Shown here one piece after another: positions 47,563 to 63,974 of a DNA stretch of 64,000 bases. The stretch lies in NCBI GenBank assembly GCA_963699755.1, contig CAVOVB010000001.1, positions 832,001 through 896,000 of the forward strand, in the 5' to 3' direction. This DNA comes from an uncultured delta proteobacterium. Lineage in GTDB: Bacteria > Myxococcota_A > Polyangia > Polyangiales > Houyiibacteriaceae. Position 1 is the first letter of the stretch, and each line of letters opens with the position of its first letter. Position numbers and translations under genes: made by a program. The notes under the pieces were generated by a model. That model saw nothing but the letters and a program-made list of their open reading frames with translations. It searched no databases and was not told the origin of the DNA.

Positions 47563-48231
47563 TTACTCAATTTTGGTGATTCTGGTTCGCGGCGAGACCC
47601 GGCGTCGAGGCTCACTTTTCCTCTCGAAGGACTGCTGGATGACGAAAAACTCGTCGGCATCGGGCAGTGTCATCAGGTGCGTGGGGCTCCGTGGACGCAG
47701 TTGCGGATGCTCTCGCGTATCGAGCTCGATGAGAAAGTCCGTCCCCGGGATCGCGAACCTCGAGAAATGAGCCACACCCAAGGAATTGGTCTGGGCCACG
47801 CCTTGTCCGTCGAGAAGAACCGGAAGGCCCGCCCCGTTTTTCGCCCGGACGATGAAGGCCCCCAATCGTTTCTGCGGCCGGCATCTGAGGGTGATCTCCA
47901 AGGCGCGCGAATCGAGCTCGCCCAGAGACTCGAAGCGCCGAAGCCTCAAGAGCTTCGCTGCTGACGGGGGTTCGTGTCCAACTGGGCAGTCGTGTTCAAT
48001 ACTCATTTGCTGACCAAGCTGCCCATGGACCTCGCTCTGCAACAGACCCGCGGAGTTGGTCTCGCCTACGAGCCTTCCGTCGACGGATATTCGAACCCCG
48101 CTCAGCCTATGGCCAGGGTCGGATTCGACGGAGAAGAGGAGGTCGATGGCTTGCGTGGAGGCCGCAGTCTTCTGGCATGAGGCCCAGACCGCGACGCCGA
48201 CGACGAGGATCGGGAGGCGCGTCAAGGACAT
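47563..48231 (-). CDS. Tad-locus accessory protein, probable beta-rich lipoprotein
   Basis: Signal peptide ending VWASC; two similar units (VDGRLVGETNSAG and LDGQGVAQTNSLG) resembling PEGA/Ig-like repeats; overlaps the upstream gene. Confidence 0.75.
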   Translation of the reverse strand: MSLTRLPILVVGVAVWASCQKTAASTQAIDLLFSVESDPGHRLSGVRISVDGRLVGETNSAGLLQSEVHGQLGQQMSIEHDCPVGHEPPSAAKLLRLRRFESLGELDSRALEITLRCRPQKRLGAFIVRAKNGAGLPVLLDGQGVAQTNSLGVAHFSRFAIPGTDFLIELDTREHPQLRPRSPTHLMTLPDADEFFVIQQSFERKSEPRRRVSPRTRITKIE

Positions 48232-48851
48232 CTGCTGCTCACGGGTGGATCGGCTCGGTCACAGCGGAGCTTGGCCCTGAGAACGGCGACGAAGTCTCGG
48301 AACGTTCGGTCCTCGGGGAAGAGCTCCGCAAGGGATTGGTACTGCCTCAGCGCGGCGGGAAAGTCGTTTGAGGCGATCAGGGCTGCGGCGTGGCGCTCAA
48401 GCTCGTCTCGCTGAGCGGCTGCGATTTCTCGAATCGCTGCTTCGCGCTGAATGTCAATTGGCCGGTTCATTTCTAGGGAATGCTCGGACGGACGCGACAG
48501 CGCGGATTCGCTCGCCGGCCGGGGGGCCCCGAGCTCGGTGAGAGTGACGCGCAGGGCCTCGGCGACCCGCGATTGCTGGCGAGCGACTGATCCGAGGCCA
48601 ACCAGGAGAGCAAAGGCCAAGCTGAATTCGATGACCTGGCGCGGGTGGCTCGAGAGCAGCGCGCTCGCGCCTCGCCAAGTCGGCCGTGCTGGGGGCTTGC
48701 GGCGTCCGTCTGGAATGCTTGCCGACCCCGCCGGAGTCGCATGACCAGGCCCCTCGAAAGCTGGCGGCACGCCTGCGAGGCGGGCCGGTTCGACGAGGGT
48801 GCGTTCTTCGTCCCCGTCCCAGATGGCCATCGTGGCAGGCTCCTCGTTCAT
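48222..48851 (-). CDS. Tad-locus accessory bitopic membrane protein
   Basis: Disordered N-terminus (DEERTLVEP), one TM (FSLAFALLVGLGSVA), TPR-like C-terminal helices; 4-nt overlap with the ATPase gene. Confidence 0.7.
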   Translation of the reverse strand: MNEEPATMAIWDGDEERTLVEPARLAGVPPAFEGPGHATPAGSASIPDGRRKPPARPTWRGASALLSSHPRQVIEFSLAFALLVGLGSVARQQSRVAEALRVTLTELGAPRPASESALSRPSEHSLEMNRPIDIQREAAIREIAAAQRDELERHAAALIASNDFPAALRQYQSLAELFPEDRTFRDFVAVLRAKLRCDRADPPVSSRCP

Positions 48852-49846
48852 TCGCCGCCTCCAAGGTCGGTGGGCCGTTCGAACAGATGCTCGATCCGAT
48901 AGCCCGCGTGACCGTCGTGCCCGAGTATCTGGGAAACGTAAGTCACCTGGCGGAACCCGTCAGAGCACCGGGACACCTGAACGATGAAGTCGACCGCCGA
49001 GGCAATTTGTGCGCGGAGCACGTTGAGCGGAACGTCGACATCGCTCATGAGGGCCATCGTTTCCAATCGGCTCAGCGTGTCGATGGGGAGCGTGGCGTGA
49101 ACCGTCGAGAGACATCCACGGTGACCAGAGGTCATGGCTTGGATGAGATCGAGGGCCTCACCGCCGCGGATTTCACCGATGACGATCCTGTCCGGTCGCA
49201 TTCGAAGCGTCGCCCGAAAGAGGTCTCGTATGCTGACCGAGCCACGGCCGCGAGCGTCGGCGGGCTGTGCCTCCAGCTGCACGACATGGGGGAGCTGAAC
49301 CTGAAGCTCTTGCGAGTCCTCGATGACCACCACGCGTTCGTCATCAGCCGCAAGCGATGCCAGCGCGTTCAGGAGAGACGTTTTCCCGGAACCGCTTCCG
49401 CCGGCAACGATCACGTTGTACTTTCGCCCGATGATCGATCGCAGCAGAGGCGCGGTGTCTCGAGACACGGCGCCTAGCTCGACGAGTCGTTCCAAAGTCA
49501 GCTGCTGCCGCCGAAAGCGCCGGATGCTCACGACCGGACCGGAAGGAGAAGCAGGTGGAATGATTGCTTCGACGCGAGAGCCATCTGGCAACCGGGCCTC
49601 CAGAATGGGCTGATGCGCGTTGAGCTCGCGGCCGACGAATTGCGAGAGGTTTCGAAGAGCGGACATCAGGTCGTGCTCTGATGCAAATCGGCTCCCAGTG
49701 AGATGGAGCCGACCTTCCGTCTCGACGTAGATTTCGCGGTGACCATTGATCATGATCTCGCTCACCGCGTCGCCTTCGAGGTAAGCAACGACCGGGGCGA
49801 ACAGAGACGCGACGGTCTGGTCGAAGACGTGACGCGGGATGCTCAT
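48848..49846 (-). CDS. CpaF/TadA-family secretion ATPase, second and shorter copy
   Basis: SEIMING, ARLPDGSRV, GGSGSGKT (Walker A), IEDSQEL (Asp box), RMRPDRIVIGE (Walker B), GHRGCLSTVH (His box). Confidence 0.93.
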   Translation of the reverse strand: MSIPRHVFDQTVASLFAPVVAYLEGDAVSEIMINGHREIYVETEGRLHLTGSRFASEHDLMSALRNLSQFVGRELNAHQPILEARLPDGSRVEAIIPPASPSGPVVSIRRFRRQQLTLERLVELGAVSRDTAPLLRSIIGRKYNVIVAGGSGSGKTSLLNALASLAADDERVVVIEDSQELQVQLPHVVQLEAQPADARGRGSVSIRDLFRATLRMRPDRIVIGEIRGGEALDLIQAMTSGHRGCLSTVHATLPIDTLSRLETMALMSDVDVPLNVLRAQIASAVDFIVQVSRCSDGFRQVTYVSQILGHDGHAGYRIEHLFERPTDLGGGE

Positions 49847-50538
49847 GGAGCCTCCCCAAGGCGTGCGCTCGGATCGCTCAGAAGCGGCTCGAATCGCGGA
49901 GCCTCCATGATTTCTGTAACCTCACCGAGAATCGACCTCGCTTCGGCGGCATGAGGGCCTTGCGGGGTCAATCTGAGATACTCCTCTAGGTGGGCCATCG
50001 ATCGCCCTCGGTCGGCTTCACCTTGTCGATAGAGCATGGCGAGCCGGTAGTGGGGCAAGGCCCTCTCAGGTTCCGCTGTCACGATCCGCTCGAGCTCCGA
50101 CTGCGCCCGAGCGAGGTTTCCTATCGCCTCGTAAATACTGGCAACGACGAGCCGCAACGACCACTGTGCAGGATGGTCGCGGAGGTATTCAGCTGAGTGG
50201 TTGAGCGCTGATTGGTAGCGGCTCGCTGCGACGCAGACACGGACCAACCAGTAAACCACAGCCGCCTCGTCGTGACCCCGTTGTCGCGCGGCGCTCAGGT
50301 ATTGCTCGGCGCGCAAGAGATCGCCGGAGCGCGCGTGAGCAACGCCCAAGAGGAAGAAATCTTCGGCGCTGATGCTGCTGAGCTCGGCTTGGAGCTCGGG
50401 TCCTCGATACAGGGTTCTATGATGACAGCCGCCAACGATCGTGAGGCACGGCAAGAGCAGAAAACCAAGTGCTCGGCTAGCGCGACGTGCTCGCTCGTGC
50501 CGCGGCCTTCCCGATGTTCTTCTCGAGCCATTCGACAT
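49843..50538 (-). CDS. TPR lipoprotein (TadD/pilotin-like)
   Basis: Hydrophobic stretch ending IVGGC, followed by TPR repeats (PHYRLAMLY, HLEEYLRLTPQG). Confidence 0.75.
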   Translation of the reverse strand: MSNGSRRTSGRPRHERARRASRALGFLLLPCLTIVGGCHHRTLYRGPELQAELSSISAEDFFLLGVAHARSGDLLRAEQYLSAARQRGHDEAAVVYWLVRVCVAASRYQSALNHSAEYLRDHPAQWSLRLVVASIYEAIGNLARAQSELERIVTAEPERALPHYRLAMLYRQGEADRGRSMAHLEEYLRLTPQGPHAAEARSILGEVTEIMEAPRFEPLLSDPSARLGEAP

Positions 50539-51028
50539 ACTCGTGCCTCCTCAGGTGCTCAGTCAAAAGAAGGAGTCGACGAATCTCGCTGAGCGCGTCG
50601 GACCATCGATCCTGTTCGAGCGCGTTGACCAAGTTCAATCGCGCTGCGGCATAGTCGGTGTCGACCCGAGCAGAGAGCTCTGAGCTCGAACGACGGACGC
50701 GTGCGGCATCCCGCTCGGCGCCGGCGAGTCGATAGCAGGCTTCCGCTTCCTGATAGCGCTGAACGGCACGAACGCCATCCCGGGGATTGTAGGCGTACCG
50801 GTCGGCTCGAAGAAGGGCGAGCTCCTCTGCACGGCGCCCATTTCGAAAGGCCTCGCCGCGAGGCGAACAGGTCGCGACGTCGACGAAAAGCGCGGGATAC
50901 GCACCGAGCGCAGGCCCGCGCACCCCCTCGGTTGCACCATCTCGGAGCCAGACAGCAAGCGCGACGAACAGGGAAGCCGCGAGTAACACCAATGGACCAT
51001 TGCGCCTGTTCTTCGAAGCCTCCGTCAT
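50477..51028 (-). CDS. Tad-locus accessory membrane-anchored helical protein
   Basis: ATG 51028 overlaps the tadC stop; N-terminal TM (LVLLAASLFVALAVW). Confidence 0.7.
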   Translation of the reverse strand: MTEASKNRRNGPLVLLAASLFVALAVWLRDGATEGVRGPALGAYPALFVDVATCSPRGEAFRNGRRAEELALLRADRYAYNPRDGVRAVQRYQEAEACYRLAGAERDAARVRRSSSELSARVDTDYAAARLNLVNALEQDRWSDALSEIRRLLLLTEHLRRHEYVEWLEKNIGKAAARASTSR

Positions 51029-51939
51029 GCCGACCCCAAGCCTCCCATCATGAAGCGAACGACGACAGGGCCGAGCAGAAGGACGATGACGCACATGAAG
51101 ATCAAGGTCATTGGCCCGAGGAGCATGAGCGCTGCTTCAGATGCTGTTTCTTCGGCAGCGATGCTGCGCCGCAGACGCTGGGTCTGTGCCTGTATGGTCA
51201 AGACGCTGGCGAGCGGGCTTCCCTTTTCCTCGGCTTGAACGACGCTATTGACGAACTCGCGAACCTGGTCGGTCGGAACGCGCGCAGCGAACGCTTCCAT
51301 CGCGCTTCTTCGAGTATGGCCGAGGTCTAGCTCCCGCAGGACTCTGGCGAACTCTTCGATCACGGGGTCACTGGGATCCGACGCGCTATCAACGATGCGG
51401 CGCAGTGAACCCGGAAAGTCCAGACCCGCGCTCATGCACATGGACGCGAGCTCGACGGCCCCCGGAAGCCCCCTACCGACAGCCCGCGCTCGAGCTTTGG
51501 CGACGCCCACCACGTGAAACCAGGGCAGCGCGGCCCCGATACCTAGAGCTCCAAGCGCGAGCAGCCGAGGTATCTCCACGCGCTGGCATGAAACCAGAGC
51601 AACCGCTCCGAAGCCGAGCCCAGAGAGCACGCACAGGCCAATCAACTCGTCCTCGGAGAGGCCCAAGTAGTCGCCAGCATGTGTCAAAGAGCGTCGCATT
51701 CGCTTTCGAAGCCGCTCCGCGCAAAGGAGCGCGACCCATGCGGCGAGCAGGCGGACCATCGGCTCGAGAGCAGCGAAAAGGGGGCCGTTGCGTAGGGCCT
51801 TGCTGCGATTGAGACCTCTGGCACCCAGCGTCGGCCGCTCCGCAGCCGGCATCTTCGCAAGCTGCAGCGCCAGCCCAGAGGTTCCTCCGACGATCGCGAC
51901 GAAGAGTACCGCGAGCATGATGTCGAGCTGAACGATCAT
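51025..51939 (-). CDS. tadC: Type II secretion F-family platform protein TadC
   Basis: LPGAVELASMCMSAGLDF, VIEEFARVLRELDLG, QAEEKGSPLASVL, AAEETA; follows tadB. Confidence 0.9.
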   Translation of the reverse strand: MIVQLDIMLAVLFVAIVGGTSGLALQLAKMPAAERPTLGARGLNRSKALRNGPLFAALEPMVRLLAAWVALLCAERLRKRMRRSLTHAGDYLGLSEDELIGLCVLSGLGFGAVALVSCQRVEIPRLLALGALGIGAALPWFHVVGVAKARARAVGRGLPGAVELASMCMSAGLDFPGSLRRIVDSASDPSDPVIEEFARVLRELDLGHTRRSAMEAFAARVPTDQVREFVNSVVQAEEKGSPLASVLTIQAQTQRLRRSIAAEETASEAALMLLGPMTLIFMCVIVLLLGPVVVRFMMGGLGSA

Positions 51940-52796
51940 AGGTCGGCCTTTGCGATGTGATGAGCCCAGACCGTTGCAAACGTCCAGACTAGGGCGCAGG
52001 CGCCAAGAATGGACTGTCCGATCCGCTGGTTCAGCATAGGATCGAACCACGAGCGATCGAGCCAAGCGATCATGATGCAAAGAAGAAAGGGTACGGATGC
52101 CAAGACCAGAACCTGTCCTCTACCTTCGGCAGTCTTGGTTCTGAGCACGCCGTCTAGCCTCGTCGCTTCGCGCAGAGCGGCTGAGGCATGCTCCAAGGTC
52201 CGGGGCAGATCGCCGCCGGTTTGTCTGGCAACGACAATCGTCGCGAACGCCCCCGCGATCACCGTGCTGTTGATTCTGCTTGCCGCCGCTCGAATCGCTC
52301 GGTCCAAGGGTGCGCCGAGGCGAATCTCTTTGACCAGTAGGTCGACCTCTTCGCTGAATGGCTTCGGAACCAACTTGACCGTGGAGGCGATGGCCTCTCC
52401 GACCGACGAAGTTGCTTTGAGCGCATTGGCCAGCATCAGCAGCCAGGAGTCGAGCTGACGTTCGAGTTGAGCGACGCGCGCGACGTGTCGCTTCCATAAG
52501 ATGAATGGCGGTCCGCCGACCGTAGCGGCGGCGAGCAGAGCGACGACTGGCTGACGGCTCAGAGCAAGCAGGCCGGCAAAGGCCATGAATACGATGAGTT
52601 GAGCATGCGCGATCTGGGAACCTCGGTAGGGCATCAGCAGAAAGCTCGAGTGCCGCTCCAGTCGCGCGGTGTAACGTTGCCACTGACGTCGAAGGAGGTT
52701 TTCCTCCACCGATATGAGGAGATACCCGCTGGTCGCGCATCCGACCAGGAGGAGCGCTCCGGAGAGCAGAAGAAGCGGCAGGGCCTCGAACCTCAC
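51936..52796 (-). CDS. tadB: Type II secretion F-family platform protein TadB
   Basis: QLDSWLLMLANALKA, EIRLGAPL, RQTGGDL, TAEGRGQ. Confidence 0.9.
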   Translation of the reverse strand: MRFEALPLLLLSGALLLVGCATSGYLLISVEENLLRRQWQRYTARLERHSSFLLMPYRGSQIAHAQLIVFMAFAGLLALSRQPVVALLAAATVGGPPFILWKRHVARVAQLERQLDSWLLMLANALKATSSVGEAIASTVKLVPKPFSEEVDLLVKEIRLGAPLDRAIRAAASRINSTVIAGAFATIVVARQTGGDLPRTLEHASAALREATRLDGVLRTKTAEGRGQVLVLASVPFLLCIMIAWLDRSWFDPMLNQRIGQSILGACALVWTFATVWAHHIAKADL

Positions 52797-54370
52797 AAGA
52801 ACTCTCCACCGTGGATGAGCCCCTGCGTGATGAATTCGTCGAGAAAGCTCGGGACATAGCCGGTGGTCCGGTGCTCACCCAGAACTTCGCCCGAAGCGCC
52901 CGTGCCCGTTCGATGGAAGGCGAAGATGTCGTGGAGGACGAGATCGCCTTCCTCCCCGAGCTGTCCGACTTCGGTGACGGAAGTTATGCGACGGGAGCCG
53001 TCCGAGAATCGTGTTTGTTGAACGACGACGTGAAGGCTTCCGGCGACTTGCTCGCGGATGGTCGTCGGCGACAGATCCAGGCCTGCCATCATGCACAGTG
53101 TCTCGATGCGCTTGAGCGCTTCCCCGGCGCTGTTCGCATGAGTCGTCGTCATAGAACCCTCGTGACCGGTGTTCATTGCCTGCAACATGTCGATTGCTTC
53201 GCCGGCACGGCACTCTCCAACGATGATGCGGTCCGGTCGCATTCGAAGCGCGTTCTTCACGAGGTCCCGAATGCTATACTCGCCGCCCCCTTGGAGGTTC
53301 CGAGGCTTGGACTCGAGTGACACGACATGAGGTTGATCGAGGCGCAGCTCCGCAGCGTCTTCGATGGTGACGATTCGCTCTCCTGGCGGGATTTCGGTGG
53401 AGAGGACGTTCAGCAAGGTCGTCTTCCCGCTGCCGGTCCCGCCCGAGATTAGCAAGTTCTTCTTGGCGCGAACGCAACGCTTCAGGAACCTCGCCATGGC
53501 TACGCTCAGGCTACCAAGCGCAACGAGCTCGTCCATCTGCAGTGGGCGCTTTGCAAATTTCCGGATCGTGATGCAAGGCCCCCGGACCGCGAGCGGGGGG
53601 ATGATGGCATTTACCCGGGAGCCGTCATCGAGGCGTGCGTCGACCAAGGGCGTGCTCTCGTCGATTCGCCGGCCCAGGGGCGTCACGATTCGTTCGATCG
53701 CTGCACGACACGATTCATCGTCGGTGAAACGCAGCGACGTGAGGCGGATTTTGCCCCCTCGTTCGACGTAGATCGTGTTCGGATCGACGACCATGATTTC
53801 GGAGACCGAGTCGTCGTCCAGCAGCTCTTGAAGCGGCCCGAGCCCAAGCGCTTCGTCCGTCATCTCGGCGACGAGCTTTGCAGGGTCTGTGGCAGGCGAG
53901 AGCTCGGAAGCAAAGTCGGCCACGATCTGCTGCAGAGCTTCGACGACTCGGGGCCTCAGGACCTGGGCATCCATGTCGGCGGCCTCGAGAGAGGCTAAAT
54001 CGAGGTGGTCGAGGAGCGCTCGGTGAATGCGGCGCCTCAGCTCCGGGGACGCAGGAGCTTCGTTCCCAGCAAGAGCGGAGATCCGAAGGATGTATGGGCC
54101 AACGCGAAGCTCCCCTCCGGACGCTAGCGGTGTTTCCGATGTACAAAGTCGCTCGCCTTCGAGGATCGTACCGTTGGACGATTGATCGAGGACGCGGGTG
54201 CCTCCGGGCCCCTGCTCCACCCTTAGGTGGATTCGGCTCACTGCGGGGGACGGAAGGACCACGTGACAACCAGGGTCGCGGCCGACGAGGAGTGAGCTCG
54301 TGTCGGCAATGCTCAGCTCTTTCCGAGAGCCGTCGGGCATGAGAACAGACACCCCGAACCCGGAGCTCAT
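52793..54370 (-). CDS. cpaF: FHA-domain CpaF/TadA pilus ATPase
   Basis: N-terminal FHA (VGRDP, VSRIH, SSNGT), then GLGPLQELL, GGTGSGKT, IEDAAEL, RMRPDRIIVGE, NTGHEGSMTTTH. Confidence 0.95.
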   Translation of the reverse strand: MSSGFGVSVLMPDGSRKELSIADTSSLLVGRDPGCHVVLPSPAVSRIHLRVEQGPGGTRVLDQSSNGTILEGERLCTSETPLASGGELRVGPYILRISALAGNEAPASPELRRRIHRALLDHLDLASLEAADMDAQVLRPRVVEALQQIVADFASELSPATDPAKLVAEMTDEALGLGPLQELLDDDSVSEIMVVDPNTIYVERGGKIRLTSLRFTDDESCRAAIERIVTPLGRRIDESTPLVDARLDDGSRVNAIIPPLAVRGPCITIRKFAKRPLQMDELVALGSLSVAMARFLKRCVRAKKNLLISGGTGSGKTTLLNVLSTEIPPGERIVTIEDAAELRLDQPHVVSLESKPRNLQGGGEYSIRDLVKNALRMRPDRIIVGECRAGEAIDMLQAMNTGHEGSMTTTHANSAGEALKRIETLCMMAGLDLSPTTIREQVAGSLHVVVQQTRFSDGSRRITSVTEVGQLGEEGDLVLHDIFAFHRTGTGASGEVLGEHRTTGYVPSFLDEFITQGLIHGGEFL

Positions 54371-55518
54371 CGAACGCGCTCCTTCGCACCGGTCGTGACG
54401 ACGTCGCGACCAACGCGCGGTTGGTCCATCAGGTGCTGATCGTCGACGCCACCTTGGAAGCTCTCGTACACGCGTAGCGCTTCTTCGACGCGGTCCCTTT
54501 GACTCAAGCTCACCGGCTCGACGACCGAAGGCACGACCAACATATATGATTCGTTGTCCTCCGTCTCACGAGAATGCGTTCCGAAGAGCGCGCCAATGAA
54601 CGGAACGAGCGCAAGCCCAGGGATTCCGTCCTTCCTACGGCGTTCGGTGCGTGCTCGAATTCCGGCCAAAGAGACCGACTGACCGAGCTCCAGGTTGACC
54701 AAAGTCTCCACGTGCGAAGTGATTCGACCGGGGATTCCCCGCGCCCCCTTTTCGGCGTCGAGATCGGACACATCCGCAACGATCTCGAGCTCGATGCGGC
54801 CGGTCCTCGGATCGTACTTGGGAAGGACGCTCACCTTCGTGCCGAACTCGATCGCCTGCACGTTCACCGTCAGATTGTTCTGGACCTGAACGTTGAACTC
54901 GCCCCCAGAGGTGAAGACGGCTTCGGCACCGTTTGCGGTGACCAAAGTCGCCTGCCGATACATCTTGGCCCAGCCCTTGGCCTGGGCGAGGTCGAAGCTG
55001 GGCAAGAACGTCTGGGGAAGGATTTGAAATGCGCTCTGCGTGGCTTGCCCGCTCCCACCCGTGATGGCGATAGCCGCTTCGGACGGTCCGATCGTGCTTC
55101 CGATGTTCCCGGGCCAGTTGAGCCCGATCTGATGGCCGTACCGGTCCTGGATCAAGACGAAGTAGAGGTCCAAGCGGATGTTCTCTCTCCCTCCGAGCCC
55201 TTTGACGGCGTCCGCGGCAATCACGCGAATCGTGTATTGCATCTGACTCCCATCGTTCTTGATGAGAAGGAGGGATGTCGTCCCTTCTTCCTTTCCGACG
55301 ATCACGAAGCGACTCTGGTCGCGTGTCACGCGGATGTCTGCAAACCCGGGAGCGCCCTCCGAGTAGCTCTTGATTCCATGTGCTGACAAGCTCTTTTGCT
55401 CGCCAACTCGCAGGACAATCGAACTGGGGGCTTCCACATCGGCCGCAGCCCTCTCCGCGCGGGTCGCGCCGACGAGCATGAGTGCCACGAGCACCTGACC
55501 TTTCGACAGCTCTGGCAT
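54367..55518 (-). CDS. cpaC: CpaC/RcpA-type secretin
   Basis: N-terminal T2SS/T3SS pil_N-like region, GGEFNV, EFGTKVSVLP, GIPGLALVPFIGALFG; position between cpaB and cpaF. Confidence 0.85.
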   Translation of the reverse strand: MPELSKGQVLVALMLVGATRAERAAADVEAPSSIVLRVGEQKSLSAHGIKSYSEGAPGFADIRVTRDQSRFVIVGKEEGTTSLLLIKNDGSQMQYTIRVIAADAVKGLGGRENIRLDLYFVLIQDRYGHQIGLNWPGNIGSTIGPSEAAIAITGGSGQATQSAFQILPQTFLPSFDLAQAKGWAKMYRQATLVTANGAEAVFTSGGEFNVQVQNNLTVNVQAIEFGTKVSVLPKYDPRTGRIELEIVADVSDLDAEKGARGIPGRITSHVETLVNLELGQSVSLAGIRARTERRRKDGIPGLALVPFIGALFGTHSRETEDNESYMLVVPSVVEPVSLSQRDRVEEALRVYESFQGGVDDQHLMDQPRVGRDVVTTGAKERVR

Positions 55519-55519
55519 C

Positions 55520-56281
55520 CTAGTCGACCTTCTCGATCCGCAGTCGCCGTTGTCGGCGCGCCCGCTTTTCTTGCTCGAGCACGTCGGAGTCGTCGGTTTC
55601 CTCCAGCCCTTCGTGGATCTCTAGATCGTCCTCATTGCGCAAGATGAGACTCAAGGTACCGTCGCGCCCCGCCTGGGCGAGCAAGCCGGCTTGATCGATC
55701 GTGACGAGCAGTGTGACGGAATCGGATCGAAGTGCAGAGCTTTGCTGATCCGCGGCGCCGAAGCTGTCGCCTACGGCAAGAATGAGGACATTCTGCACTA
55801 ATGGAACCGTGACCACCCTAGCCTCTACGCCCGGCTTGGATTTGGTGAGCAAGACGTCCACCCGATCGCCAGGACGCATCAGCTCGCCGAATGAGCGTCT
55901 CCCGGGTCCCCTGACGCTCATTGCGCGCATCCCTTTTGGAATACGGCTCGACAGCGAGCTTCGATCGCGGGGCGTCGTGGCAAGGTCGGTCCACAAGAGG
56001 GTCTGATTCGCTTCGAGGGCAATCGATGAGCGGACGCCCAAGACTCTTGGAAGCTCGGTCGCCAGCACCTGCCGTTCTTCGACGTAACTCTCGGGCAACG
56101 TGCGTACCAGCAACATCTCCTCGGTGAGAGGCCGACCGGCCTCGACATCTTGCCTGGTCACGAGCAATGCAATCGGATCACCCCCAGTTGCCTCTCGCTG
56201 AAACTGACGCACGTAGACGGCGAGGACGACGAAGCCGAATACGGCAATGGTCAACGATGTGATGATGGCGCTTCTGTTCAT
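55520..56281 (-). CDS. cpaB: Flp pilus assembly protein CpaB/RcpC
   Basis: N-terminal TM, SAF-like region, IPKGMRAMSV, PGDRVDVLL, QNVLILAVG, VTLLVT, LSLILRN. Confidence 0.92.
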   Translation of the reverse strand: MNRSAIITSLTIAVFGFVVLAVYVRQFQREATGGDPIALLVTRQDVEAGRPLTEEMLLVRTLPESYVEERQVLATELPRVLGVRSSIALEANQTLLWTDLATTPRDRSSLSSRIPKGMRAMSVRGPGRRSFGELMRPGDRVDVLLTKSKPGVEARVVTVPLVQNVLILAVGDSFGAADQQSSALRSDSVTLLVTIDQAGLLAQAGRDGTLSLILRNEDDLEIHEGLEETDDSDVLEQEKRARRQRRLRIEKVD

Positions 56282-56297
56282 GGGTCTGTGCCTGCGG

Positions 56298-57179
56298 TCA
56301 CGACGGTTCAGAGGAGAGAATGGAGAGCAGGGTTTGTGAGGCTTCGCCGGGGTGGGAAAGAACTGTGACCATTCGATTTCCCTGCTCGGCGGAGACCATG
56401 TGAATCCCGTCGATCGAGATCGACTCGGAAGGACGCTGCTCGATGATCGTCCAGCCGTTCTTCGGGAGCTCGGTCCGATAGAACGACGCGAGCGCGGCTG
56501 CCGACTGGTCGGCCACGCGATACACGAAGACGCCGCTTGGTTGCCACGGTTCCCAGGCGGATAAGACACGCTGCGATCCGGGAGGACGCGGCACGCCCGC
56601 GAGGTCACTGCCCCCGCCGTCAGCACCGGCAACTGGTAGCATTTGCCGAAGGTTGAAGGCGGAGTCTGCCCAGACCGTCAGAACAAAGGTCTTGTCCTGC
56701 GCATCGTCCGACACGCGACGCGCGCGCACGTATCGAAGGGCGCCGAGCTGGGCCAAGTCGCCCGTCTCGGAGAACTGAAGTAGTCGATTGCTGAGTGAGC
56801 GAAGATCTCGACTTGCATCGCCCAGCTCGAGGCAAGCCACATAACCTGCTTCGTCGTTGTGCGCGGTCTGCATCGAAAGCCGCGCGATGAGCCCAGCATC
56901 TTCCCCGACGCAAAGGGATTCGTAGTGTGCGAGGACATCCTTCAGGGGCGCGTCGATCGTTTCGGTGCGAAAAGAAATGTAGACGCCGTTGAGTTGGAGA
57001 GACCGCGTGGCCTCCAGAGCTGCGCCGGGATACTTCATGACCTCGGTGCCGACGCCCCAAAGCAGTTCTGTCACGTCTGCGCGAACGGACCGGAGAACGA
57101 AGAGCGAAGCCAGGGCCGCGACGGCGGCGAGAAGCAGCCCCAGGCGAAGGAATGGCAGGAATCTATCGACAAACTTCAC
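56298..57179 (-). CDS. Tad-locus accessory protein with N-terminal TM
   Basis: GTG start overlapping the upstream TadE-like gene; LGLLLAAVAALASLFVL; FYRTELPKNGW motif. Confidence 0.75.
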   Translation of the reverse strand: MKFVDRFLPFLRLGLLLAAVAALASLFVLRSVRADVTELLWGVGTEVMKYPGAALEATRSLQLNGVYISFRTETIDAPLKDVLAHYESLCVGEDAGLIARLSMQTAHNDEAGYVACLELGDASRDLRSLSNRLLQFSETGDLAQLGALRYVRARRVSDDAQDKTFVLTVWADSAFNLRQMLPVAGADGGGSDLAGVPRPPGSQRVLSAWEPWQPSGVFVYRVADQSAAALASFYRTELPKNGWTIIEQRPSESISIDGIHMVSAEQGNRMVTVLSHPGEASQTLLSILSSEPS

Positions 57180-57696
57180 GTGCGTACTCCGTCGTTTGCA
57201 GTCCCGTGCGGCAGGCTTGCTCAAGAACGTTGCCCCCGCCCTCGGAGTCCCTCGAGCTGGTGTTGCAAAGCAAGGTCGTCACTCCGTGCTGGGACCCCAA
57301 CTGCGCGCCCAGCAGGCGAGGCATCCGCGCTTGAGCCATGCCGACTCCATGGGTCACCTTCCCAACGAGGAAGCGACCGACGTTCCCAAGGAAGGAGTCC
57401 AGGGAGAAGCGACTGTCCCGCACCCTGAGCAGGGCATCGAGACCGCCAGCGCGAATGTCGCCTTGGATACGCCCACAGTCTCCGCTGCGGCAGCTCTGCG
57501 CGGGACACTGGCCCGAGTCGGCTTGCAACCATGCGATTCGCCGAGCGCGAGCTTTGGCCTCTAGCTTCGCGCCGTACATTCCATGGAGAGCGACGACGGC
57601 CGCCAGCGCTGCAAAGAATACGGGAAGGCTGATCAGCGCTTCGACCATTGCCGTTCCTTCTTCGTGTCGGACTAGTCGTTTGAAGCGCTGATCCAT
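57163..57696 (-). CDS. TadE/TadF-like pseudopilin
   Basis: RHEEG|TAMVEALISLPVFF prepilin G|xxxxE motif; Cys-rich body. Confidence 0.8.
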   Translation of the reverse strand: MDQRFKRLVRHEEGTAMVEALISLPVFFAALAAVVALHGMYGAKLEAKARARRIAWLQADSGQCPAQSCRSGDCGRIQGDIRAGGLDALLRVRDSRFSLDSFLGNVGRFLVGKVTHGVGMAQARMPRLLGAQLGSQHGVTTLLCNTSSRDSEGGGNVLEQACRTGLQTTEYAREVCR

Positions 57697-57703
57697 GCTG
57701 TGC

Positions 57704-58912
57704 TCAGTGCGCGGAAATCGCGTTGATCGAGAAGTCTCGTGCGACATCACAGAGCCCTGCGAGCCCTGCAAGCGGGCCTCTCCCTCGCCCTGCCGAGCAT
57801 GCGCTGAGGATTCCGCTCGGAATCCAGTCGCGGGAAATACGGAACCTGCGAAGGCGTGCGCGCCAACGCTGCTTCCATAGCCATTCCGCCTTGTGCTCGG
57901 TACCATCGAAGTAGTACTCGGCCTGCGCGAAGGCGAGACGCCCAAGGAGGTGGGCTTTGTGCGCAGCACTACGCCCGTCCTCCTTGCCGCCCTGCGCGAT
58001 GCGAATCCCCCCCTCCCCGTGCTGCCAATGGTTCTCGTGCGGGTCCCGGCCGATACTGTACGCGCGGTATTGAAACTCCTCGTGCCCGAGCCAAACGACG
58101 GTGCCATCGCGGCGGCTTTGGAGGACGCGACGCGGGGGCTCGACGACGTCGTCGGCGCATGTCCTCCGTTTACCGAGCCGAAGGGCCTGGCCGACTGCGC
58201 CGCCGAGGAGCTCGAGAAGCCACTTGGGCACCTTGGAGCTCACATTGCTCAAGCGGTTGCTCAGGCCGTCGGCGACGCGGTCGCAGAGGGTTCCGATCTC
58301 GTCCTCCTCGACGGGCAGTCCCCGACCGCCTTTGGGGAGACGGGAGCCCAGAAGAGGGACGACGAAACCACCGGCGACGGGGGGATCATACGCGTCCTGA
58401 AACGCCATCGCATCGACTGCACGAGCCTCGGCAAGCAATGGGTACCCCCGCTGAACGGCGTGGTGCGCTGCGTCTAGGGCGTCGTGGGCGATTCGGACGA
58501 ACTGCTCGACGGCGTCGCCGAGCCTTTCGACCGTGCTCTCGACGGGGCTGAGGAGAGCAATGAGCGCCGCGGCCTTCGCGGCGAGGATGACGGTCCCGGC
58601 TAACCCGTAGAGAACTCCGATGATGATCTCCAGCAGCACTTCGACGCTCCGAATCACCAGAAGAATCCCTGTGGTAACCGCCATCACCACGTTGAGGAGC
58701 GCGTGCAGGTTCATCCCCTTGGCGCCCATGACCGAGGCGGCATGCGCTCCCGCATCGGCGCCGTCCTGCATGATGCGCCGATAGATCACCGCATCGCCGA
58801 CGCCCAGGAGGTAGTAGAGCGCTCCAATCAGGAGCAGGGCCATGAAGAGGGACATGAGCATCATGGCTCCGCGCGTCTCTTCGACTAGGCTTGTTCTCTT
58901 CGAGGCCATCAT
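57704..58912 (-). CDS. TadG-like (Tad domain) minor pilin
   Basis: ETRG|AMMLMSLF hydrophobic N-terminus and MQDGADAGAHAAS motif typical of TadG N-termini. Confidence 0.75.
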   Translation of the reverse strand: MMASKRTSLVEETRGAMMLMSLFMALLLIGALYYLLGVGDAVIYRRIMQDGADAGAHAASVMGAKGMNLHALLNVVMAVTTGILLVIRSVEVLLEIIIGVLYGLAGTVILAAKAAALIALLSPVESTVERLGDAVEQFVRIAHDALDAAHHAVQRGYPLLAEARAVDAMAFQDAYDPPVAGGFVVPLLGSRLPKGGRGLPVEEDEIGTLCDRVADGLSNRLSNVSSKVPKWLLELLGGAVGQALRLGKRRTCADDVVEPPRRVLQSRRDGTVVWLGHEEFQYRAYSIGRDPHENHWQHGEGGIRIAQGGKEDGRSAAHKAHLLGRLAFAQAEYYFDGTEHKAEWLWKQRWRARLRRFRISRDWIPSGILSACSAGRGRGPLAGLAGLCDVARDFSINAISAH

Positions 58913-59700
58913 GAGCCCCTCGGTCGGTACTCGTAAGACGCGTCATGGATCATCAACGTCGTTTGATGCTGGAGGCCTCGGAAGCGCCCGCCGACGAAGC
59001 CCTGCGCCGGAGGGAAGAACGCTTCGCCGAGGTCTTCCTTGCCGTGGATGTCCGCGAATGCCCGACATAGGATCCTTCGCGCGAGCGGCACCGTGCACTG
59101 ATAGGCGTACGTCACACGGACGGTGATCTCTGAACCCGTGGCAAGATCGTCCTCGAGGCCGGGAAAGGTCACTGCGAGAGCGAACGGTTGATAGTAGAGC
59201 GCGCTGAGGAGCTTGCGCTCGCTTCCAATCGCCTTGCCGATGCTCGGACTTGCGTCGCGACCCACATTGGTGGGGGCCAAGGGCATGAGCGGAATGTGTG
59301 CGGCGAGGCGAATCGTGTTGAGGCGTGACCTACCGAGGTTCAGGAGCTTGTCTTCTGAAAATGCCGTCAGGACCGCTTTGGGGTCCGGAGGCTCGCCCAT
59401 GGCCGACGCGACCTGGCCCAACGCCCGCTGTAGGTCGGACAGAGCGACCGGGTTGCGGTCGACGCTCATCTCGGGTTCGCCGCCGTACTCGTTTGGGTCG
59501 TCCGGCAAGACGACGACCGCGGACCGAGCGGCCGAGTCAGCGGAGTGCTTCACCATCAGATTTGCGTGTGCGATGAAGGCGAGCTGAAGCACGCATAAGA
59601 AGAACGTCCACATCGGAATGAACGCGATCAGAAGCTCGAGAAAGACCACGCCACGCTTGTCCGCGAGCAGTGAAAGAGGAGCCGAGATCAGAGTGGTCAC
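58909..59700 (-). CDS. tadE: TadE-family pseudopilin
   Basis: DKRG|VVFLELLIAFIP, HSADSAARSA, VRVTYAYQCTVP. Confidence 0.82.
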   Translation of the reverse strand: MTTLISAPLSLLADKRGVVFLELLIAFIPMWTFFLCVLQLAFIAHANLMVKHSADSAARSAVVVLPDDPNEYGGEPEMSVDRNPVALSDLQRALGQVASAMGEPPDPKAVLTAFSEDKLLNLGRSRLNTIRLAAHIPLMPLAPTNVGRDASPSIGKAIGSERKLLSALYYQPFALAVTFPGLEDDLATGSEITVRVTYAYQCTVPLARRILCRAFADIHGKEDLGEAFFPPAQGFVGGRFRGLQHQTTLMIHDASYEYRPRGS

Positions 59701-60242
59701 AGCGCAGCCCAGGCCAAAGAGAGATGCGGAATCGCAATGAAGCCTGTCGCGACGAAGACCGGCGCACCCATACGAATGGGCGCGGACAGCTCGGCGCATG
59801 GCTCCCGACGCCAGCCGGCTGGAAGGACAGGGCGAAGACCCACGACCAACGCATTCCCAAGCGTGGCAAACAAGGCGCCCTTCCAGGCGAGCGCCGAGCT
59901 AGCGACCACCATGGCCACCAGGAAAGCCGCAAGTTGAACCTCGACCCCGAGCAGCAAATCAAAGCCCAGGACGGCGCCGAGCGCCCCGAGAAGCTTCACG
60001 TCGCCACCCCCCATCGCGCCCCGGCGAAACAAGAGGTACGGCACCAGCCCGGCCAAAAACGCGGCGGCGAGGCTGTGTAGCGCATACTCGATGCCAAAGG
60101 CGAGCCCATAGGCTAGTGGCGCCAAGAGCAGAGCGGGGAGCGTCAGCCAGTTGGGAATCTCGCCTCGCTGCCAATCAGAGAGCGCCGCGATAGCGGCAAC
60201 AAAGAGGGCAAGGCCCGCGGCGATGGTAGCGGCTGTGTTCAT
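59697..60242 (-). CDS. cpaA: A24 prepilin peptidase (CpaA/TadV)
   Basis: SDWQRGEIPNWLT and MGGGDVKL catalytic Asp motifs; true start ATG 60242, the ORF-track N-terminal extension is spurious. Confidence 0.92.
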   Translation of the reverse strand: MNTAATIAAGLALFVAAIAALSDWQRGEIPNWLTLPALLLAPLAYGLAFGIEYALHSLAAAFLAGLVPYLLFRRGAMGGGDVKLLGALGAVLGFDLLLGVEVQLAAFLVAMVVASSALAWKGALFATLGNALVVGLRPVLPAGWRREPCAELSAPIRMGAPVFVATGFIAIPHLSLAWAAL

Positions 60243-60253
60243 GGGACTGCCGG

Positions 60254-60439
60254 CTACTGCACGACGTCGGCGATGTATCCATCGGCGGCTTCGACCTCGC
60301 CGATCAAAGTCTCTCCGAACTTCTGCCAGGCGGCAATGCCAACGACAGCGATCAAGCCGAGCACGATGATGTACTCGACCGTCGTCAAGCCCCGCTTGTC
60401 CGTTAGCAATGGTCCGCTTCTTTCTGCATTGTCGTTCAT
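60254..60439 (-). CDS. flp: Flp family type IVb major pilin
   Basis: DKRG|LTTVEYIIVLGLIAVVGI; strong SD GAGAGGAAGG. Confidence 0.93.
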   Translation of the reverse strand: MNDNAERSGPLLTDKRGLTTVEYIIVLGLIAVVGIAAWQKFGETLIGEVEAADGYIADVVQ

Positions 60440-60454
60440 GATGGCCTTCCTCTC

Positions 60455-60624
60455 TCAGGGAACCGGTAAAAGGATGAAGAGCTTCGTCAGGTAAAACGCC
60501 TGCACGAGCGGCACGCCGAGGGCGTAGAGGGCCAGGCCCGCCGTTAGAACGACGATCCCTGTCACCAACGTGTACTCCGCGAACACCACGCCCGGTCATC
60601 GGTCGTGGGCGGCCGCGGTTGCGT
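60455..60624 (-). pseudogene. Second Flp-like pilin, disrupted (ACG start and a 1-nt deletion)
   Basis: The frame reads GVVFAEYTLVTGIVVLTAGLALYALGVPLVQAFYLTKLFILLPVP*, with TGA two codons upstream. Adding one G at ~60591-60593 restores TTDDRG|VVFAEY. GAGGAG SD sits 6 nt before ACG at 60624. Confidence 0.7.
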
Positions 60625-61297: not shown

Positions 61298-62539
61298 TCA
61301 GTCCGTGGCGCGGACCTGGACGGTCGTCGGGCGGTCTTCGGGCATCGGGAGGATGGCATTCCAGCCCGGCGGCAAGACCGGCTCGGTCAGCTGGAAGAGG
61401 TAGCGGGCATCTGCCGGGGAGAGGTTGATGCAGCCGTGGCTTCGGCGGCGGCCGAAGTCGTCGTGCCAGAAAGCGGCGTGGAAGCCGTAGCTGCCCTTGA
61501 AGAACTGCACCCAGGGAACGTCTTGAATCGAATAGTTCTTTTCGACGTCGGTGCGCTCGATGTCATCCATGTCGGAGTACTCGAGCTTGGCCCAGATCTG
61601 GAACACACCGACGGGGGTTTCGGATTGCCTGCTGTCGCGGCCGGTTGAAACCAGGGTTGCAAAAATTGGCCACGGGCCTTCGTAGGCGACCAGCACCTGC
61701 TGGTCGATGTCGATGTCGATCCAGCGGTCGGTGGGGCCGACGCCTTCGGGAGGGTCGACGAGCTGGCTCCGCGCGAGCGCTGCGGTTTTGACCCAGCCTC
61801 CCCCTCTGAGCTTGGTCCAGGCGCCCTTGCTGGCTCCGATGCGCACGACGCTGTGGCGCTGGAGTTGCCCGAGCACACGGCCCTGCGGCCTCTCGTACAG
61901 TTTCGCCGGCCGAATCGAAACCCAAGCGAGGTCGAGCGCCGCGCCTCGGGCGAGCTTCACGCCGCGAAACGTGCTTCCGTCGACGAAGTGGACCGAGCCG
62001 CGTTCGATCCAGAGGTGGCGGCGAGTGCGAATGAACTCGACGCCCTCGTAGACCTGCTCGCCGGTAATGACGATGCCATATCCCTTGCCAAGCGCTTCGC
62101 TGTAGTCGTTTCTGAAGTAGTCGCTCGGATGCGCGTAGGCGCGGGTGCCGTCGAAGCGGACGAAAGCGTAGCGCTGCGGCAAGCGCCTGCTTCGGTCTAG
62201 GAGCAGGTCTCGCTTCGGTCCGGGTGGCGCGGGAGAAGGCTCTACGTGCTCTTCGCAGATGAAGAGCTCGTCCCGGGTCTGGTACCAGACTCCGGTCGAA
62301 CAACCTTTCCCAAACACCCTACGCGTGAAGCCGAGGCGCGTGCCTGCGCCAACCGTCCCCCGGCGACGCGACTCGCTGTCCGGAGAAAGCATCACCGGGG
62401 CACCGTCGTTGACGACTTCGACTGACTTGGCCCAGGATGGCGCCGGCGCTGCGGTCTCGGCAAGGTCCGCGTCGGCTGAAGCCGCTCGGGGCCAGCCGAA
62501 AGCCAGCGCTGCAAACAGGAGAACTGTCGCCCTGCCCAT
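61298..62539 (-). CDS. L,D-transpeptidase (YkuD) family protein with SH3-like region, exported
   Basis: WIDIDIDQQVLVAYEG, VSTG, TPVGVF, GFHAAFWH, SHGCINL (HxxxxSHGC); signal peptide. Alternative starts 62548 and 62551. Confidence 0.92.
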   Translation of the reverse strand: MGRATVLLFAALAFGWPRAASADADLAETAAPAPSWAKSVEVVNDGAPVMLSPDSESRRRGTVGAGTRLGFTRRVFGKGCSTGVWYQTRDELFICEEHVEPSPAPPGPKRDLLLDRSRRLPQRYAFVRFDGTRAYAHPSDYFRNDYSEALGKGYGIVITGEQVYEGVEFIRTRRHLWIERGSVHFVDGSTFRGVKLARGAALDLAWVSIRPAKLYERPQGRVLGQLQRHSVVRIGASKGAWTKLRGGGWVKTAALARSQLVDPPEGVGPTDRWIDIDIDQQVLVAYEGPWPIFATLVSTGRDSRQSETPVGVFQIWAKLEYSDMDDIERTDVEKNYSIQDVPWVQFFKGSYGFHAAFWHDDFGRRRSHGCINLSPADARYLFQLTEPVLPPGWNAILPMPEDRPTTVQVRATD

Positions 62540-62573
62540 CGACTCCATCATAGGGGAGAGCGATGTGGATCGC

Positions 62574-63974
<1,401 letters not shown>

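Follow-up and report, generated by a model that had tools for sequence, protein, structure and literature searches.

A Kil-like Tad operon with a second CpaF-type ATPase in uncultured Polyangiales

A seventeen-gene Tad locus

We analysed a 64,000-nucleotide stretch of contig CAVOVB010000001.1 (assembly GCA_963699755.1; hereafter, the window) from an uncultured member of the Polyangiales, and describe in it a Tad pilus locus that encodes two CpaF ATPases, one of them fused to an FHA domain. The locus consists of 17 open reading frames (ORFs) from the ORF list of the window, named g01 to g17, which run on the minus strand from position 60589 down to 47563. All of them are present in the order given by a preliminary description of this DNA and are tightly packed, as it had noted, with 4-nt overlaps at 8 of the 16 gene junctions. 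Pfam and NCBIfam returned matches to Flp, an A24 peptidase, two weak TadE, RcpC, a secretin, FHA plus T2SSE, two T2SSF, TPR, and a second T2SSE. The Tad core is complete within the window, with RcpC/CpaB, secretin, CpaF, TadB, and TadC all found. The pilin side is also present: the match to the A24 peptidase is strong, those to Flp and TadE are weak, and TadG is recognized by sequence and position only. Genome searches found one Tad locus with one triplet of tip genes (g04-g06).

A promoter-like motif, GCAAC-N15-CCGAT (60598..60622, on the minus strand like the genes), lies 8 nt before the first start codon. The first gene, g01 (60455..60589), encodes a small Flp pilin of 44 amino acids that starts at the mature N-terminus (V/M-V-F-x-E-Y), without a leader. 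Its earlier labelling as a pseudogene was rejected, as the 44-codon ORF and its start are conserved: the start is GTG or ATG at mature position +1 in seven of the eight rows from the genus. Homologs of g01 in other families keep a D-x-x-G leader. By comparison with KilK/KilO, g01 could be an adapter pilin. The major Flp pilin is encoded by g02 (60254..60439), recognized by a G|LTTVEY cleavage motif and a PF04964 match that is under the cut-off (E 1e-4). It is followed by g03 (59697..60242), a prepilin peptidase of the CpaA/TadV type resembling KilA (PF01478, E 6e-18), and by the three tip genes: g04 (58909..59700) and g06 (57163..57696), both TadE-like minor pilins (PF07811, E 0.002 and E 0.005, respectively), and g05 (57704..58912), a large TadG-like minor pilin identified by its prepilin-like N-terminus and conserved position, with no Pfam match. 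The products of g04, g05, and g06 are likely to form a tip trimer together.

The remaining core genes are g08 (55520..56281), encoding CpaB/RcpC (KilB; Pfam, with TIGR03177 over its cut-off), g09 (54367..55518), a short CpaC/RcpA secretin of 383 amino acids with a Pfam match to the secretin and none to BON, g10 (52793..54370), the FHA-fused CpaF, and the platform proteins g11 (51936..52796; TadB, KilG) and g12 (51025..51939; TadC, KilH), each with a PF00482 match. According to Pfam, alignment, and tree, g10 is KilF-like and has both the three-helix bundle and the extension face. The second CpaF, g15 (48848..49846), has 332 amino acids and carries the second T2SSE match.

Between and after these lie five accessory genes. 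The product of g07 (56298..57179) is predicted to combine a membrane helix with two periplasmic PsbP/DcrB-like domains (mean confidence, pLDDT, 91.8); its structural matches are PA1624 (Z 11.0, root-mean-square deviation 2.3, 101 residues aligned) and DcrB (Z 8.8), a Foldseek search gave nothing at E<=0.001, and PDB sequence searches starting from the alignments of g07 and g17 were unproductive. As g07 occupies the position of TadZ in the locus, it was considered as a diverged TadZ and excluded by its fold. No ParA/MinD gene lies at the locus, none of the 15 CbiA/ParA matches of the genome is nearby, and none of the four genes initially described as unknown resembles a diverged CpaE, so the reported lack of CpaE/TadZ holds. 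Downstream of tadC, g13 (50477..51028) encodes a membrane anchor and a helical, TPR-like periplasmic domain with two invariant cysteines, for which a fold search found only generic helical hairpins (best Z 9.4). An N-terminal FHA domain is present on 36 of 74 g13 homologs and absent from the window copy and its closest kin. The next gene, g14 (49843..50538; start codon uncertain), encodes a TPR protein that is likely a pilotin of the TadD type, for which there is a precedent (PMC10499894; all published work is cited here from its accessible parts); it has a TPR match and a lipobox-like cysteine, and no TadD-specific match. The product of g16 (48222..48851) has a low-complexity cytoplasmic part, a membrane helix, and one TPR; as with g13, many distant relatives carry an N-terminal FHA domain that is lost in the window. 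The last gene, g17 (47563..48231), encodes a lipoprotein (invariant Cys19) with two beta-sandwich domains of the PEGA/carboxypeptidase-regulatory-like type.

The G+C content of the operon resembles that of the remainder of the window, and the nearest records are uncultured Polyangiales, including SG8_38. The sequencing runs in which the stretch is best represented are metagenomes from sediment. DNA contigs of one run (X1), possibly the source sample itself, match the locus piecewise with 0 differences. An RNA run (X15) held only scattered pieces of relatives (word share 0.06) and was not used as evidence of expression. Directly upstream of the operon, the window encodes an L,D-transpeptidase (61298-62869, minus strand) and an FHA-containing sigma-54 activator (62574-63974, minus strand).

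The second ATPase and its likely role

We compared the best 80 genome loci for g15, which were picked by likeness to g15 and belong to related genomes, and are thus not independent. Of the 63 loci having at least 4.6 kb of upstream sequence, 60 have the FHA-fused ATPase g10 ahead of g15, at a distance of at most 7 kb; g16 and g17 are found in 58 and 53, respectively, of the 65 loci having at least 2.6 kb downstream. The five distal genes are therefore syntenic with the Tad core in relatives. The full g01-g17 order recurs in six loci of the genus and, with insertions, in other families, which bears out the proposal of a distinct, conserved, and self-contained Tad variant of Kil-like type. At least two CpaF matches occur in 33 of 41 related genomes. 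A draw across the phylum gave 50 matches of at least 332 bits, a cut chosen after the list had been inspected, in 48 of 161 genomes and 13 family groups; the second CpaF clade is present in 13 family groups of Myxococcota. In one family (f25), 17 of 18 genomes have two matches, and the g15-type ATPase is separated from the core, often by 16-19 kb. The FHA-CpaF of this family (L106) matches a Bradymonadales row of the alignment in PMC8460266, and FHA and TPR genes follow tadC. Two further arrangements were observed: a very small Polyangiales genome (G127, 1.8 Mb in one contig) retains a complete two-ATPase locus (L122), and genomes of family f8 carry two separate two-ATPase Tad loci (L009/L010 in G031, L124/L297 in G098).

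A phylogeny of CpaF with KilF-type rows, as the preliminary description had proposed, places g10 on the KilF side and g15 in a clade of its own. The careful tree contains 51 of 107 rows, the longest branches being omitted; the tree of all 107 was a quick one with long-branch warnings. The KilF-type rows come from metagenome contigs on which the genes are arranged as in Kil cluster I (FHA, peptidase, secretin, FHA-ATPase, FHA-FHA). In the 51-row tree, g15 forms a single clade (support 100/100), g10 forms a clade with the f25 rows (99/87), and g10, g15, and KilF lie together on one side of a split from 12 non-FHA CpaF rows (99/97). The free tree unites g10 and g15 (98/88), and an approximately unbiased test does not reject a clade of g10 with KilF (p 0.11); g15 may be sister to g10, through a later duplication, or older than the KilF split, with a loss in Myxococcus. 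Several subgroups recur in both the g10 and the g15 clade, the pattern that an old, vertically inherited duplication would produce. The possibility that g15 is an imported VirB11/TrbB was not favoured, its best solved match being CpaF (E 5e-80) compared with 5e-30 for VirB11. Three unusual ATPases were encountered along the way. At L120:8654-11107, the open frame of an ATPase at the base of the g15 clade also encodes an FHA domain. Another FHA-fused CpaF-like protein, the third of its kind (L154:9570-11243; G000 C1:1201569-1203242, minus strand), has a degenerate Walker A and is surrounded by unrelated genes. Lastly, a distant FHA-ATPase (L155) adjoins an FHA-FHA gene and a Ser/Thr kinase.

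Residues were examined in Caulobacter CpaF numbering across 42 rows of the g15 clade, 39 g10 rows, and 9 KilF-type rows; g10 aligns with Caulobacter CpaF residues 87-484. The g15 rows keep the catalytic residues K287 (42 rows), T288 (41), E312 (41), R347 (42), E357 (41), R223 (42), R217 (38), and H382 (40), whereas D215 is replaced by E in 30 of 42; the window copy retains all tested catalytic residues except for this D215E. What g15 has lost are the residues of the extension face and the three-helix bundle, as nearly all g15 rows start at the last helix before the hinge. The hinge glycines (PMC11300603) G147 and G149 remain in 0 and 3 of 42 rows, and R206 and E331, which are among the residues at the extension interface with TadB/TadC (PMC12019362), in 3 rows each. 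The corresponding counts are 39, 39, 39, and 38 of 39 for g10, and nine of nine for the KilF-type rows. At E331, 29 g15 rows have R or K, a charge reversal at the tip of the pore loop. G204 and G334 are kept.

Caulobacter CpaF has been proposed to retract the pilus by docking through its C-terminal face, with R387 required for retraction and a C-terminal motif tied to the retraction pose (Whitfield et al., bioRxiv 2026.02.24.707734). In g15, the beta13-beta14 turn is conserved (R425 in 41, D428 in 40, G429 in 42, and R431 in 41 of 42 rows), and the C-terminal motif and P386 are each present in 36 of 42. Taken from these residues, g10 is likely the extension motor and g15 likely a dedicated, PilT-like retraction motor, the latter being supported in part. 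The family score for PilT is 42 bits, against a cut-off of 319, and the AIRNLIRE motif is absent; since g15 is a CpaF by sequence, it would represent an independent origin of a retraction motor. PilT itself arose through duplication and subfunctionalisation, and PilB/PilT and PilT/PilU are the only system-wide ATPase duplications named in the accessible part of PMC6668835. The type IVa pair PilB/PilT, likewise a duplicated motor in which one copy is minus its N-terminal domain, serves here as a working analogy only.

Several observations weigh against retraction by g15. R387 is present in 12 of 42 g15 rows and 12 of 39 g10 rows, as opposed to nine of nine KilF-type rows and 13/16 in a further set; being equally variable in g10, it does not single out g15. 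The beta13-beta14 turn is just as conserved in g10. The C-terminal motif is missing from the window g15 and five others, the His box is lost in two g15 copies of the genus, and the window g10 itself has Q at E331. The two copies without the His box (L018:4850 and L019:13957) sit on long branches and are likely decaying.

A rather doubtful alternative is that g15 is a helper ATPase, which would take over from TadZ the switching, assembly, or loading of the machine, either in mixed rings with g10 or together with the membrane proteins g13, g16, and g17. It would account for a locus that has no TadZ, and for the g17 homolog that accompanies g15 in family f25 (three genomes fetched), where g15 is separated from the core. 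The scarcity of R387, the D215E replacement, and the C-terminal motif, which is not conserved in the genus, would also suit a helper. However, the losses in g15 strike known contacts of the extension face with the platform, including a charge reversal, and leave the catalytic set and the beta13-beta14 turn in place; moreover, g10 shows relaxed conservation of R387 only in the presence of g15.

These features matter because Tad pili have been treated as single-motor machines, with continuing debate about the way in which a single ATPase drives extension as well as retraction. The canonical Tad/Cpa pilus of Caulobacter (PMC12019362, PMC11300603, bioRxiv 2026.02.24.707734) shares its core parts with the window, but has TadZ and one bifunctional motor, whereas the window has two ATPases and no TadZ. 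The three-helix bundle is counted in the minimum CpaF architecture of PMC12019362, from which g15 departs. A natural pair in which one paralog has shed the extension face would thus offer a direct test of the ATPase-inversion model.

Kinship with Kil and the case for predation

Much of the locus has precedents. In the Kil system of Myxococcus xanthus, the only ATPase carries an FHA fusion, the secretin is short, and TadZ is missing (Seef et al. 2021, PMC8460266), and FHA-CpaF is a known architecture class of CpaF (Yen et al., PMC12019362), so neither the FHA fusion nor the missing TadZ is new. In Sandaracinus, Chondromyces, and Labilithrix, five near-consecutive core genes have been tabulated as kil homologs (Herrou et al., PMC12075869). 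A contiguous Kil-like core is also reported in Bradymonas (PMC8460266 Supplementary file 2), and no Polyangiales appear among the alignment labels of Fig. 7 of that paper, in the first of seven parts. The literature that we covered, which excluded PMC12075869 Suppl. Fig. 23 and subscription papers (Thiery 2022), held neither a two-CpaF Tad locus in Myxococcota nor the promoter described here, and the accessible parts of PMC11821767 and PMC11509652 contain nothing on a second ATPase. The suggestion of an undescribed system can accordingly be narrowed: it stands for the second CpaF, and not for the FHA-CpaF, the lack of TadZ, the short secretin, or the core of kil homologs, all of which have been published. 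We regard the locus as a new variant of a known, Kil-like core.

The closest comparison is the Bradymonadales cluster DN745_00680-00700 (PMC8460266), in which cpaB, cpaC, FHA-fused cpaF, tadB, and tadC are likewise contiguous; the f25 ATPase that matches a Bradymonadales row falls in the g10 clade. One ATPase is named for the cluster in the part of the paper available to us, whereas f25 genomes also carry the detached g15 type; in the window, a single operon encodes both ATPases together with the pilins and the peptidase. As Bradymonadales also carry the second motor, this bears on the interpretation of their Kil-like cluster.

M. xanthus Kil (MXAN_3102-3108 and MXAN_4648-4661) shares with the window the FHA-fused CpaF, the lack of TadZ, the short secretin, the TadE/G/E tip triplet, and two Flp pilins. 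FHA accessory proteins after tadC are a further likeness found in relatives of the window, where the FHA gene recalls, by position, MXAN_4649 and MXAN_4648 beside kilH. Kil differs in its two split clusters, single ATPase, KilD, four tips, and T3SS* partner; the window has an unsplit locus, two ATPases, one tip, and no FHIPEP gene in the genus. Its secretin is even shorter, with 383 amino acids compared with ~480-490 in the Kil type. No Myxococcus-type genome was among our genome-search results, and the absence of g15 from that group rests on PMC8460266, as far as accessible. Another predator, Bdellovibrio bacteriovorus, has a Tad system with extra tadA paralogs and FHA/TPR genes nearby (bioRxiv 2026.07.08.737194), but with a TadZ-TadA fusion, dispersed loci, and no TadV, and the accessible part gives no role for the paralogs.

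Could the locus be the Polyangia form of Kil, a pilus under FHA regulation whose assembly is set off by contact with prey and whose tip does the killing? The FHA-fused CpaF, the lack of TadZ, and the short secretin, and the grouping of g10 with KilF apart from the non-FHA CpaF rows, would fit. Predatory genera of Polyangiales reportedly have Tad genes, which Sorangium and Polyangium lack (PMC10196010). Lysis by Kil depends on T3SS* (T3SS, type III secretion system), and killing by Tip4 is independent of it (PMC12075869 for Tip4). FHIPEP, a T3SS export gene whose family does not separate flagellar from type III secretion proteins, is present in 15 of 16 other families, and the genome holds a full-length GltG-like gene, with a score under the cut-off. 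Against this, FHIPEP was not found in any of the 25 genus genomes searched, there is a single tip triplet, and the published Tip profiles match none of five Polyangia rows examined in the table of Herrou et al. (PMC12075869 Supplementary Data 1). The promoter motif in common with comF and dprA, described below, also speaks against it, as does the loss, in the window, of the accessory FHA domains that more distant relatives have on g13 and g16. The case for phosphorylation gating is, with this loss, weaker for the window than for those relatives. Overall, we consider the Kil form unlikely, and the predation machine first suggested for this DNA is not favoured for the genus; predation is plausible for the wider clade, less so here.

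A promoter-like motif and possible DNA uptake

Upstream of the first Tad gene, the motif GCAAC-N15-CCGAT is present in 7 of 8 genus rows, and again in 5 of a second set of 8 (12/16). Its shape fits an extracytoplasmic function (ECF) sigma promoter giving a leaderless mRNA, and we infer that it may act as one here. Among the best 30 of 38 comF and the best 30 of 34 dprA matches, the strict motif stands upstream of 20 and 19, respectively, across several families, against a background of 6 in 2653 ORF starts. A matrix built from 45 comF/dprA sites only gave the window site a score of 17.2, which ranks 17th of 33 genome sites with a start at 6-8 nt. Two genomes of family f8 carry it upstream of flp and cpaA; in one of them, it also precedes a tadC that is split from tadB by an insertion. 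The strict motif was not found before any of the 18 sigma-70 genes, and matches inside pilin or peptidase coding sequence (L119, L096, and L016 internal) were discarded as coincidences. The genome carries comEC, dprA, comM, comEA-like genes, and comF.

These observations lead to our preferred explanation, which we hold tentatively: a complete Kil-type Tad operon in which g10 extends and g15 retracts, and whose pilus, in this genus, takes up DNA rather than lysing prey. The FHA-fused g10 would drive extension; g15, no longer docking by its N-terminal face, would engage TadB/TadC by its C-terminal face, as predicted for PilT and for retracting Caulobacter CpaF. The fibre would be formed by g02 and the tip by g04-g06, with g01 as an adapter and g14 as the pilotin. 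The pilus would then capture DNA and pull it in, the step that we grade weakest. DNA capture appears more likely than prey lysis because comF and dprA have the motif as well and the genus genomes searched yielded no T3SS export gene. Tad pili are used for DNA uptake in Micrococcus luteus (cited in PMC12019362) and in Liberibacter (PMC8513845).

The link to DNA uptake also faces difficulties. The motif was not found before comEC (0/24) or comM (0/22), nor, in this genome, before comEA or pilM, and most Tad loci outside the genus that have upstream sequence lack a site ahead of the first pilin. DNA uptake could instead be served by the type IVa pilus genes of the genome and its further PilB/PilT-like ATPases. 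The motif also lies upstream of recQ, of an FHA sigma-54 activator, and of DUF4160 and toxin-antitoxin-like genes, among them antitoxin-like ones, and may thus be the mark of a general stress regulon. This would agree with a reading in which the operon of this genus makes simply an adhesion pilus, a stress sigma factor controls it, and g15 is decaying, as might the C-terminal truncation in five genus g15 rows, the two long-branched copies without the His box, and the lost accessory FHA domains. Yet the window g15 has all of the tested catalytic residues save for D215E, and more than 100 g15 homologs have 68-89% identity, most of them with similar length; we consider this reading improbable.

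A broader proposal joins two events: the independent evolution of a dedicated retraction motor in a widespread lineage of myxobacterial Tad pili, as a second origin of the PilB/PilT division of labour, and, in this marine-sediment genus, the rewiring of a former predation pilus, which would have joined comF and dprA in a competence regulon under an ECF sigma factor, for DNA uptake. We think it rather unlikely that both hold. Even so, the promoter link cautions that a kil homolog in Polyangia need not point to predation, and it hints at a possible competence regulon in myxobacteria.

Beyond the Tad locus, the comF (G000 C10:216447-217067), dprA (C5:30703-31617), recQ (C4:75669-77606), and FHA sigma-54 activator (C10:52297-53838) genes each have the motif with a start 7-8 nt later, and may possibly constitute a Polyangiales regulon with leaderless transcripts under an ECF sigma factor. 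Short antitoxin-like and DUF4160 genes, several of them behind a strong motif, stand in runs with the look of a cassette array at G000 C2:893000-902955 (L156) and C1:29890-34033 (L159). An N16 version of the motif stands before small ORFs of mobile elements, labelled by eye as excisionase-like, at G000 C1:463211, C1:1566117, C5:79510, and C10:2316.

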